A stretch of 64,000 nucleotides of DNA, from the NCBI RefSeq assembly GCF_050920415.1, contig NZ_CP169309.1, one strand, 5' to 3'. A program made the position numbers and the translations under genes. The notes below the pieces were generated by a model. It did no database searches, was not told the DNA's origin, and worked only from the letters and a program-made list of their open reading frames with translations. Shown in pieces: positions 23,035 through 24,698 of this stretch (its first letter is position 1; every line of letters starts with the position of its first letter). This DNA comes from Escherichia coli (lineage in GTDB: Bacteria > Pseudomonadota > Gammaproteobacteria > Enterobacterales > Enterobacteriaceae).

Positions 23035-23847
23035 ATGCTCATTGATGATATTGATTTTGCGGACCTTTACCTGCAGCAACTCAAGCTGGCCCACCGCACA
23101 GAAAAAACGCCGGATCACTGGGATCAACGGGCGGAAAAAATGGCGGAAAATTGCGCCTCGCCTACGGACAGCTACCTGCAACAACTGACCGCTAAAATTG
23201 ATCTGCAAGGCGCGCAGACCTTATTCGATATGGGCTGCGGACCGGGTACCGTATCGCTGGCGCTGGCTGACAAACTCACGACGATTTATGGCATTGATTA
23301 CAGTCAGGGGATGCTGAAGGTTGCCGCCCGTCGCGCCGCCGCGCTAAAGGCAGACAATGTCCACTGGATCCAGCGCGCATGGGAAGAGGACTGGAGTGAC
23401 CTGCCACGCTGCGATATTGCCGTGGCTTCCCGCTCCACTCTGGTGGCTGATATGCGCCAGGCAATGAGCAAACTGAATAATCAGGCACGGCTTCGCGTCT
23501 ATACGACTCATCTGGTCAGCACCTCGTTCGTCTCTCCAGCCATTCAGCGGGCGGCTGGTCGGGAAGTGATCGAATTACCCAACTATATCTTTGCGCTCAA
23601 CGTCCTGTATCAGATGGGAATTTATGCTCACGTTGATTTTATCCGCGGACAAAATTGCCCACAGGATAACAGCACCTGGGAACGTTTTGAGCAGAACGTC
23701 AGCTGGAGTCTGGGCGCGCTTAACGACGATGAGCGTGAGCGGTTATATCGCTGGTATCAACAACAAGATGCTCGTGCCCTCGCCCCTGCCAGCCGCGACT
23801 GGGCGCTCATCTGGTGGGATAGCGTACCGCAAGAGGCACTGCGATGA
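23035..23847 (+). CDS. Class I SAM-dependent methyltransferase
   Basis: 270-aa ORF with Rossmann-type SAM motif (LFDMGCGPGTVSLALA); RBS aagga 7 nt upstream; embedded in the transporter operon. Confidence 0.65.
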   Translation: MLIDDIDFADLYLQQLKLAHRTEKTPDHWDQRAEKMAENCASPTDSYLQQLTAKIDLQGAQTLFDMGCGPGTVSLALADKLTTIYGIDYSQGMLKVAARRAAALKADNVHWIQRAWEEDWSDLPRCDIAVASRSTLVADMRQAMSKLNNQARLRVYTTHLVSTSFVSPAIQRAAGREVIELPNYIFALNVLYQMGIYAHVDFIRGQNCPQDNSTWERFEQNVSWSLGALNDDERERLYRWYQQQDARALAPASRDWALIWWDSVPQEALR

Positions 23848-24698
23848 TTTTCCTTTCTCAGGCACAAATCGATGCGTTACTGCTGGAAGATATCCAGGGC
23901 GGTGACCTGACCACGCGAGCATTAAATATTGGACACCAGCATGGCTATATAGAGTTTTTTCTCCGTCAGGGCGGCTGCGTCAGCGGCATTTCTGTCGCGT
24001 GTAAGATGTTAACTACGCTGGGATTAACTATTGATGACGCGGTCAGCGACGGTTCACAAGCGAACGCGGGTCAGCGGCTAATCCGTGCGCAAGGTAATGC
24101 CGCAGCACTTCATCAGGGATGGAAGGCAGTCCAGAATGTGCTGGAGTGGAGTTGCGGTGTTTCTGATTATCTCGCTCAAATGCTGGCGTTACTTCGTGAA
24201 CGTTACCCTGATGGCAATATCGCCTGCACCCGAAAAGCAATTCCGGGTACCCGCTTACTGGCCTCGCAGGCAATTCTGGCTGCCGGAGGACTGATTCATC
24301 GTGCCGGATGTGCGGAAACCATATTATTGTTTGCCAACCACCGCCATTTTCTTCATGACAATCAGGACTGGTCAGGCGCAATCAATCAGTTACGTCGCCA
24401 CGCACCCGAGAAGAAAATAGTTGTTGAAGCCGACACGCCGAAAGAGGCAATCGCCGCGTTACGCGCGCAACCAGACGTACTTCAGCTCGACAAATTTAGT
24501 CCGCAACAGGCAACTGAAATTGCGCAAATAGCACCGTCGCTGGCTCCCCACTGCACGCTGGCTCTGACCGGCGGAATTAATCTGACAACACTCAAAAATT
24601 ACCTCGACTGCGGCATTCGCCTTTTTATTACCTCCACGCCTTACTACGCGGCACCTGCTGACATTAAAGTCAGTCTGCAACCCGCAGCCTCTATTTAA
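23844..24698 (+). CDS. ModD-like protein (quinolinate/nicotinate-nucleotide phosphoribosyltransferase fold)
   Basis: 284-aa ORF; N-terminal ...QIDALLLEDIQGGDLTTRAL... and overall pattern recalled as ModD/QPRTase family; ATGA overlap with the methyltransferase stop. Confidence 0.55.
   Translation: MIFLSQAQIDALLLEDIQGGDLTTRALNIGHQHGYIEFFLRQGGCVSGISVACKMLTTLGLTIDDAVSDGSQANAGQRLIRAQGNAAALHQGWKAVQNVLEWSCGVSDYLAQMLALLRERYPDGNIACTRKAIPGTRLLASQAILAAGGLIHRAGCAETILLFANHRHFLHDNQDWSGAINQLRRHAPEKKIVVEADTPKEAIAALRAQPDVLQLDKFSPQQATEIAQIAPSLAPHCTLALTGGINLTTLKNYLDCGIRLFITSTPYYAAPADIKVSLQPAASI

Follow-up and report, generated by a model that had tools for sequence, protein, structure and literature searches.

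Nitrate, formate, dimethyl sulfoxide and trimethylamine N-oxide reductases are molybdenum enzymes, and they drive the anaerobic respiration that underlies Enterobacteriaceae blooms in the inflamed gut and the urinary tract. To our knowledge, ModABC is the only established high-affinity route for molybdenum, passage across the outer membrane being passive. A second importer, MolBC-A, takes up molybdate in Haemophilus influenzae in vivo, and transcription of molB is repressed by molybdate (PMC4031551); in the same organism, modD (HI1473) adjoins molCBA together with a second transporter of the modA/NifC type (PMC3928620). Here we compare with these systems a six-gene operon from a 64,000-nucleotide stretch of an Escherichia coli chromosome (NCBI RefSeq assembly GCF_050920415.1, contig NZ_CP169309.1; hereafter the window). 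The six co-directional genes form a 6.8-kb island located between treA, which ends at 19938, and ymgE, with ymgE, ycgR, emtA and ldcA following from 26744 onward.

We put at about 60% the probability that this operon is a ModE-repressed, TonB-dependent system for the acquisition of molybdenum (of the molybdate/tungstate class) across the cell envelope. This reading is based on ModE-type operators that are conserved among related loci, on a transporter that resembles MolBC-A, and on the genomic contexts in which ModD and the receptor family are found; much of our remaining confidence goes to variants of it in which only the kind of cargo or the roles of the enzymes are different. The features of the operon, with their positions in the window, are as follows.

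20197-20202, + strand: TTGACA, a possible -35 hexamer of the operon promoter, as read from the sequence
20220-20243, no strand: predicted ModE operator, CGCTATATA-tgtaag-TATATATCG, 24 nt before the first start codon
20268-21290, + strand: periplasmic substrate-binding protein (SBP) of the Peripla_BP_2 class (RefSeq annotation)
21290-22270, + strand: permease of the FecCD family (type II ATP-binding cassette (ABC) importer), MolB-like (RefSeq; ranking of solved structures)
22267-23025, + strand: ABC ATPase, MolC-like, 252 aa, without a C-terminal regulatory (TOBE/Mop) domain
23035-23847, + strand: class I S-adenosylmethionine (SAM)-dependent small-molecule methyltransferase ('yc73'; Pfam Methyltransf_31/25/12/11)
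23844-24698, + strand: ModD, of the quinolinate phosphoribosyltransferase (QPRTase) fold, predicted not to be a NadC (TIGR01334)
24724-26694, + strand: TonB-dependent outer-membrane receptor ('prrA'; RefSeq start; signal peptide; TonB-box-like motif DTLTVW)

The predicted operator has no mismatch to the pattern that we scored, CGNTATATA-N6-TATATANCG, which is the core of the E. coli ModE consensus (ATCGNTATATA-N6-TATATANCGAT, quoted in PMC545781), and it is the only match with two or fewer mismatches in the window, where 0.01 would be expected. As a positive control, the established modA operator of E. coli K-12, located 19 nt before modA, carries two mismatches to the same pattern, making the site described here the better match. 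A scan seeded with a ModD alignment and covering one genome per species gave 68 related loci (1.29 Mb in total), which contain 72 ModE-type sites at two or fewer mismatches compared to 0-1 in block-shuffled controls. These sites lie before the SBP gene (36), in the gap between the ModD and receptor genes (24), or beside other genes of the cluster (12, adjoining methyltransferase, ModD, modA-like or decayed cluster genes). When three or fewer mismatches are allowed, a ModE box is present in 48 of 49 orthologous promoters. In Proteus, Morganella, Providencia, Pectobacterium and Shewanella the receptor gene possesses a second ModE box of its own; Shewanella yunxiaonensis harbors two perfect boxes, one before the SBP gene and one before the receptor gene, and Edwardsiella tarda harbors one perfect box before the operon. 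Together, these sites form a strong phylogenetic footprint, which predicts that ModE controls the operon and represses it when molybdate is plentiful.

The TTGACA hexamer lies 17 nt upstream of the ModE box, a spacing at which the box would cover the expected -10 element and transcription start. A consensus promoter scan did not call this hexamer, and no clear -10 element occurs at the right spacing from it. Other modes of control were also considered. The 329-nt region upstream of the first gene contains no Fur box, its best match to the consensus having mismatches at 6 of 19 positions, and across the 49 orthologous promoters matches to the Fur and Zur consensus sequences are at background level (typically 6-8 mismatches for Fur), for which reason we rejected control by Fur or Zur. 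Control by a riboswitch or another RNA element was likewise rejected, as Rfam gave no match across 19800-27300 even at E-values up to 1. The sole Fur-box-like site in the window (GAAAATGATAACCAGTATC, 3 mismatches) is found at 9185-9203, in the intergenic region between ychF and ycgV and upstream of the latter, which encodes an autotransporter.

The inner-membrane components of the operon also resemble a molybdate importer. The best solved relative of the permease is MolB (HI1471; 1.5e-64, 221 bits), followed by HmuU (171 bits), FhuB (171 bits) and BtuC (144 bits), and the best match of the ATPase among solved importer ATPases is MolC (HI1470; 8.4e-36). For the SBP, the closest structures in the PDB are 4pag and 4ovk, both uncharacterized structural-genomics proteins, and then MolA (HI_1472), which is its closest characterized relative (profile E-value 4e-14; template modeling (TM) score of 0.67 to the AlphaFold2 model, whose predicted local distance difference test (pLDDT) score is 87). 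Curated models for other substrates fit less well: iron-specific NCBIfam models all score far under their cut-offs (for example, 21-32 bits for FecB, FepB and IsdE against cut-offs of 205-320), BtuC models reach 196-245 bits with the permease against cut-offs of 334 and 461, and the ATPase matches models of corrinoid, heme and F420 ABC ATPases at scores far below their cut-offs. The SBP additionally carries a twin-arginine motif, TRRRFTQ (window 20268-20350), whose RRxF element is nearly invariant across 21 orthologues, suggesting that the protein is exported in folded form by the twin-arginine translocation (Tat) pathway.

The receptor scores below every curated receptor model (TonB-siderophore, 123.7 against 223.5 bits; BtuB, 66-76 against 600-836 bits), and a PDB search with it returned plug-domain matches only (ShuA, FyuA) and no close solved relative. 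We therefore rejected solved structures as a route to its identity and turned to the genomic surroundings of its homologues. Pseudomonas aeruginosa possesses a homologue with 45% identity (locus at L075:7963-10525), which is widespread in that species; a palindrome similar to the modA operator, CGTTATGTA-aaaaaa-TGCATAACG, lies 14 nt ahead of its start codon. The receptor gene overlaps a gene for a 182-aa secreted protein with a region like the Oxidored_molyb domain, a molybdenum cofactor (Moco) domain, and has moaA, a gene for a PpiC-type rotamase and narIJHG as direct neighbors. Neither the ABC genes nor the methyltransferase nor ModD is present there, and this context links the receptor family independently to molybdenum metabolism.

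Against TIGR01334, ModD reaches 502 bits (cut-off 178.85; profile positions 1-277), and it falls below the cut-off of the nadC model TIGR00078 (EC 2.4.2.19; 135.2 against 198.4 bits), and while its relatives in the PDB are all QPRTases, with which it shares the domain pair QRPTase_N and QRPTase_C, its active site differs from theirs. We mapped this site by aligning ModD with 100 family representatives of less than 50% mutual identity and with the QPRTase of Mycobacterium tuberculosis. In M. tuberculosis numbering, the family keeps R139, K140, H161, R162, H175, E201, D/E222 and the GG loop. On the side of phosphoribosyl pyrophosphate (PRPP) and Mg, residues E195, D216, G243-G244 and K131 are conserved in 90-97 of the 100 representatives, with D or E at position 216 in 92; the equivalent positions have a role in PRPP binding in the 1QPR structures. 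Quinolinate is bound in the mycobacterial enzyme through R105' and K172 at its C2 carboxylate and through R139 and R162 at its C3 carboxylate, and replacing any one of these four residues by alanine abolishes activity (PMC4065032). The ModD family shows K172→F in 95 of the 100 representatives and R105'→K in 77, together with E104→W (87), L220→Q (97) and N223→K (86). E. coli ModD has F163 at the position of K172 and K94 at that of R105', and keeps a cationic pocket made up of K94, R130, K131, H152 and R153; from the quinolinate-binding set R105', R139, R162, K172 and H175, only R139, R162 and H175 remain.

Because both contacts to the C2 carboxylate are replaced, ModD is predicted to be neither a NadC nor a quinolinate phosphoribosyltransferase. 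It looks instead like a PRPP-using enzyme with an acceptor other than quinolinate, in which the part of the pocket that recognizes the leaving carboxylate appears to have been rebuilt with aromatic residues. Since the side chains lost are only those that contact the C2 carboxylate, a mono-carboxylated N-heteroaromatic substrate is conceivable. The sequence-only reading of this locus had let its proposal for the two enzymes depend on ModD retaining a conserved PRPP and substrate pocket, and comparison with QPRTase indicates that a PRPP-type pocket is indeed kept.

ModD is also linked to molybdenum transport outside this operon. The ModD genes of Cedecea colo and Yersinia alsatica, which have no methyltransferase or receptor gene beside them, adjoin genes for a modA-like protein, a NifC-type permease and a short ATPase, in loci with predicted ModE boxes, and ModD adjoins modABC in an Alcaligenaceae metagenome-assembled genome (MAG) and modB-modC in a Treponema MAG. 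ModD of Cedecea colo is 66% identical to that of E. coli, as close as the ModDs from six-gene loci, and is therefore the same orthologue working without the other parts. Gene fusions are found in three family representatives (P0144, P0146 and P0167). In two of them, an ATPase domain of the ModC/WtpC type that lacks TOBE is fused to a full ModD, which thus takes the place of the molybdate-binding TOBE/Mop domain usual for ModC; in the third, the N-terminal part of ModD is joined to Mop (molbindin) domains, a chimera that could be a gene-calling artefact. These contexts establish a link between ModD and molybdenum that is independent of the operon described here. An exception to the molybdenum context is found in two Neisseriaceae MAGs (L052 and L058), in which ModD directly follows recG and the surroundings contain neither a gene for molybdenum transport nor a methyltransferase or a ModE box.

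Within the operon, ModD is coupled to the methyltransferase gene through an ATGA overlap, in which the ATG of ModD (23844-23846) overlaps the methyltransferase TGA (23845-23847). The placement of this enzyme pair between the ABC ATPase and receptor genes, together with its coordinates and the ATGA coupling, had been described exactly by the sequence-only reading. The same six genes appear in the RefSeq annotation of an identical E. coli chromosome, and the methyltransferase and ModD are real genes rather than chance open reading frames; their translations contain no signal peptide or long hydrophobic stretch. The island is present at 80% or more query coverage in 2139 of 5426 complete E. coli genomes. 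Among the 68 related loci, 48 from about 15 genera contain all six genes in the same order (Escherichia, Citrobacter, Raoultella, Enterobacter, Yokenella, Serratia, Symbiopectobacterium, Proteus, Pantoea, Erwinia, Affinibrenneria, Pectobacterium, Morganella and Providencia, plus Klebsiella indica), and of the 59 loci with both enzyme genes, 52 retain the 4-nt overlap between methyltransferase stop and ModD start. The recurrence of this gene order and overlap indicates that the association of the two enzymes is real and under selection, and the trio of methyltransferase, ModD and receptor, whose restriction to this strain would have told against the sequence-only reading, is widespread outside it. 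The far end of the window differs in composition: positions 58001-64000 have a G+C content of 0.34-0.44 compared to about 0.50 elsewhere, which suggests horizontally acquired DNA.

Despite this conservation, the parts of the system are separable. Loci with the SBP, permease, ATPase, methyltransferase and receptor genes and no ModD occur in Shewanella yunxiaonensis, another Shewanella group, Edwardsiella tarda and one metagenomic contig. Edwardsiella species additionally harbor a second methyltransferase paralogue and ModD as a two-gene unit, preceded by a predicted ModE box in three of four Edwardsiella loci, and the bare methyltransferase-ModD pair is also found in Leminorella and in one further contig. 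Since the importer, methyltransferase and receptor occur without ModD, and ModD occurs without the methyltransferase, the transporter with its receptor, the methyltransferase, and ModD are combinatorial modules and not a fixed two-step pathway. Each enzyme is found in the absence of the other, and the two are thus not tied together as successive steps on a single imported ligand. Two further loci deserve comment. A 3.2-kb contig from an actinobacterial MAG labeled 'Collinsella sp.' (L001, JAIJJM010000374.1) encodes proteins with 98% identity to the E. coli ATPase, methyltransferase, ModD and receptor and is most likely a mis-binned E. coli contig. In Shewanella avicenniae (L069:6743-8816), an orphan methyltransferase gene directly follows an insertion sequence-type transposase gene, with the transporter, receptor and ModD absent nearby and a Nitro_FeMo-Co family gene 2.5 kb away on the opposite strand; this gene looks like the remnant of a disrupted locus.

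Because the loci of Shewanella and Edwardsiella and the metagenomic locus keep the methyltransferase without ModD, the methyltransferase has the closer tie of the two enzymes to the TonB-dependent transporter. It belongs to a narrow family (166 matches, in Enterobacterales and Shewanella), in which motif I (D65-x-G67-C68-G69-P70-G71) is invariant. The AlphaFold2 model of the protein (pLDDT 89.6) matches the fold of solved methyltransferases at a probability of 1.0, its structural neighbors being O-, N- and S-methyltransferases of natural products and small molecules at TM scores of 0.5-0.6 and 20% or less identity. CpaM, BchM and CbiT are among its best NCBIfam matches, all of which are weak and far below cut-off. 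With neighbors this generic, we rejected assignment of a substrate by fold. A specific match to TehB or ArsM was not obtained, and C68 is the only invariant cysteine of the family, C126 being nearly so; the set of cysteines typical of ArsM is absent.

Building on the observed gene content, synteny, operator conservation, homology and pocket substitutions, we infer the following model for ModE control, for molybdenum as the cargo and for the chemistry of the enzymes. When molybdenum is scarce, ModE would leave its operator and the operon would be expressed. The TonB-energized receptor would then capture a scarce molybdenum species at the cell surface and move it into the periplasm, where the Tat-exported, MolA-like SBP would pass it to the MolBC-type importer. 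Both cytoplasmic enzymes would act after import, ModD as a general accessory of molybdenum importers and the methyltransferase as a component specific to the receptor-dependent route. This specificity of the methyltransferase hints at a cargo that includes, or is accompanied by, an organic or otherwise methylatable part, whose modification would make molybdate available for the synthesis of the cofactor.

Several points weigh against this model. The SBP is only about 20% identical to MolA, and binders of siderophores, iron and heme are structurally nearly as close to it, for which reason we do not assign it firmly to MolA. For MolA itself, the affinity for molybdate is low (about 100 µM, cited in PMC3928620), and free molybdate may therefore not be the true cargo of this importer family. 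As the versions of the locus without ModD show, the transporter can do without this enzyme in some lineages, and the role that we propose for the methyltransferase is speculative, as its fold neighbors point to no substrate. The cluster is known in the literature as prrA-modD-yc73-fepC (from the CFT073 pathogenicity island; O-island 55 or S-loop 83 in O157) and has been labeled there, by homology only, as putative ('possibly' or 'proposed') iron uptake. Furthermore, the literature that we searched contains no established TonB-dependent transporter for molybdenum. It contains no link of this cluster to molybdenum either, although RegPrecise lay outside our search and an earlier computational notice of the operator is possible.

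The alternative that survives best also takes molybdenum as the cargo. It holds that the operon imports an organic molybdenum complex, either a 'molybdophore' or a compound of the pterin or Moco type, and that the enzymes modify its heteroaromatic carboxylate ligand, thereby freeing the molybdenum or salvaging the ligand. Chelates or cofactors are the usual cargo of TonB-dependent receptors and of type II importers, the core genes of the system include one for a small-molecule methyltransferase, and ModD keeps the C3-carboxylate and ring contacts of QPRTase with only the C2 contacts replaced. Methyltransferase-ModD pairs moreover persist as separate ModE-boxed units in Edwardsiella, and the receptor of P. 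aeruginosa is co-transcribed with the secreted protein that has a Moco-domain-like region. However, ModD also accompanies plain ModABC-type importers of bare oxyanions, and none of these loci contains chelator biosynthetic or export genes. The sole candidate for a chelator cluster is found in Edwardsiella hoshinae, where genes for a ThiF/MoeB-like enzyme and an EamA exporter beside the methyltransferase-ModD pair could be taken for metallophore biosynthesis. We rejected this candidate as an inserted island of the pantocin-A type, that is, one encoding a ribosomally synthesized and post-translationally modified peptide. The island (L022:11590-14432) lies just downstream of the pair, appears low in G+C by eye and consists of genes for a 30-aa EEN peptide (MIKLSTLSQRISAITEENAMYTKGQVIVLN), a PaaA-like_N and ThiF enzyme, a 2-oxoglutarate-Fe(II) oxygenase and the EamA exporter, with duplicated pieces of the 3' end of ModD and of an ail/ompX-like gene on its flanks. 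On balance, we regard an organic molybdenum complex as a tentative and rather unlikely alternative. The same caution applies to a broader proposal, which we consider worth stating but would not expect to hold: that Enterobacterales, Shewanella and Pseudomonas share an unrecognized family of TonB-dependent molybdenum transporters and that the enterobacterial cargo is an organic complex of the molybdophore or pterin type, with a heteroaromatic carboxylate ligand that receives a methyl group from the methyltransferase and a phosphoribosyl group from ModD inside the cell. Modification of the ligand would in that case release the molybdenum or recycle the ligand and would be a molybdenum counterpart of siderophore processing.

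It is improbable, in our view, that the enzymes of a molybdate or tungstate importer instead serve as a guard against toxic look-alike oxyanions such as tellurite, selenite, arsenic species or tungstate, with the methyltransferase detoxifying these by methylation and ModD acting as an anion-binding filter or regulator at the exit of the importer. The cationic pocket of ModD (K94, R130, K131, H152 and R153) and its fusion to importer ATPases in place of the TOBE/Mop domain would fit such a role, as would a faint similarity of the methyltransferase to ArsM-type and thiol S-methyltransferases and the occurrence of each enzyme alone with a transporter. This scheme is wholly inferential, however, and the methyltransferase lacks both a specific TehB or ArsM match and the ArsM-typical cysteines.

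The sequence-only reading had viewed the locus against siderophore importers and proposed, as a hypothesis, that the enzymes modify an imported ligand of the pyridine- or quinoline-carboxylate type, for example to release the metal or salvage the ligand. In an iron or siderophore importer, which is also what the database annotation suggests, they would free iron from such a siderophore. This is in keeping with the label in the literature, with the iron chelates that the FecCD, Peripla_BP_2 and TonB-dependent receptor families serve, and with the phosphoribosyltransferase-like pocket that ModD keeps. By contrast, the promoter has no Fur box and the conserved operators are of the ModE type, the iron-specific NCBIfam models fall far below their cut-offs, no iron or heme permease is as close to the permease as MolB, and ModD associates with modABC-type genes and occurs in fusions with ModC-type ATPases. 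With a conserved predicted ModE operator in place of a Fur box and with MolB and MolC as the closest solved importer relatives of the permease and ATPase, we consider an iron or siderophore importer very improbable and have abandoned this framing. Uptake of a corrinoid or another tetrapyrrole, with a methyltransferase akin to corrinoid- and porphyrin-handling enzymes, could account for the matches of the permease to BtuC models, of the ATPase to corrinoid, heme and F420 models and of the methyltransferase to CpaM, BchM and CbiT, but it can be set aside as the least credible explanation, given that all of these matches lie far below cut-off, that MolB outranks BtuC and HmuU, and that the region holds ModE operators and no cobalamin riboswitch.

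If the operon is indeed a ModE-repressed, TonB-dependent molybdenum acquisition system, then approximately 40% of E. coli genomes, and likewise many Proteus, Providencia, Morganella, Citrobacter and Serratia, would carry an energy-driven step for molybdenum at the outer membrane, and molybdenum would join the metals imported via TonB-dependent transporters. The prrA-modD-yc73-fepC set, in use as an 'iron uptake' virulence marker, would have to be re-assigned. Such a function would also provide a first concrete handle on the role of ModD, a question dating from 1993, and would be a reason to revisit the doubt over the physiological substrate of MolBC-A.

The relationship of the operon to described systems can be summarized as follows. 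Its closest counterpart is the H. influenzae cluster of MolBC-A (HI1470-HI1472) and modD (HI1473), whose type II importer comprises the closest solved importer relatives of the E. coli permease and ATPase and the closest characterized relative of the SBP, in which ModD likewise adjoins the transporter, and which, like the E. coli island, is expected to be repressed by molybdate, for molB from the literature and for E. coli from the predicted operator. The E. coli island has in addition a TonB-dependent receptor and a SAM-dependent methyltransferase, which are not among the genes listed for the Haemophilus cluster, whereas the latter contains the modA-like, NifC-type second transporter, and the SBPs of the two systems share about 20% identity. 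With modABC of E. coli K-12, the island shares the type of operator, a similar distance from it to the first start codon and the presumed metal. However, modABC encodes a type I importer with a ModA-type SBP and no outer-membrane receptor or cytoplasmic enzymes, and the components of the two systems are unrelated in sequence. The modABCD genes of Rhodobacter capsulatus, the source of the name ModD, encode ModD with a molybdate transporter, as in Cedecea, Yersinia, the Alcaligenaceae MAG and Treponema, and loss of modD there reportedly has a mild phenotype; this system differs in having a type I importer, no receptor and no methyltransferase. Relative to NadC (M. tuberculosis, 1QPR), ModD has the same fold, domain pair and PRPP-side residues but differs by K172→F and R105'→K and by its score below the nadC cut-off. 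The Fep, Fhu, Fec and Yiu systems share with the island the architecture of receptor, SBP, FecCD permease and ATPase, whereas the island is devoid of a Fur box, reductase and esterase, carries ModE operators and has as its closest solved permease one that is not for iron chelates. A receptor at the outer membrane that is predicted to be under ModE control, together with a methyltransferase, is thus what the E. coli operon brings that is new relative to MolBC-A and modABC.

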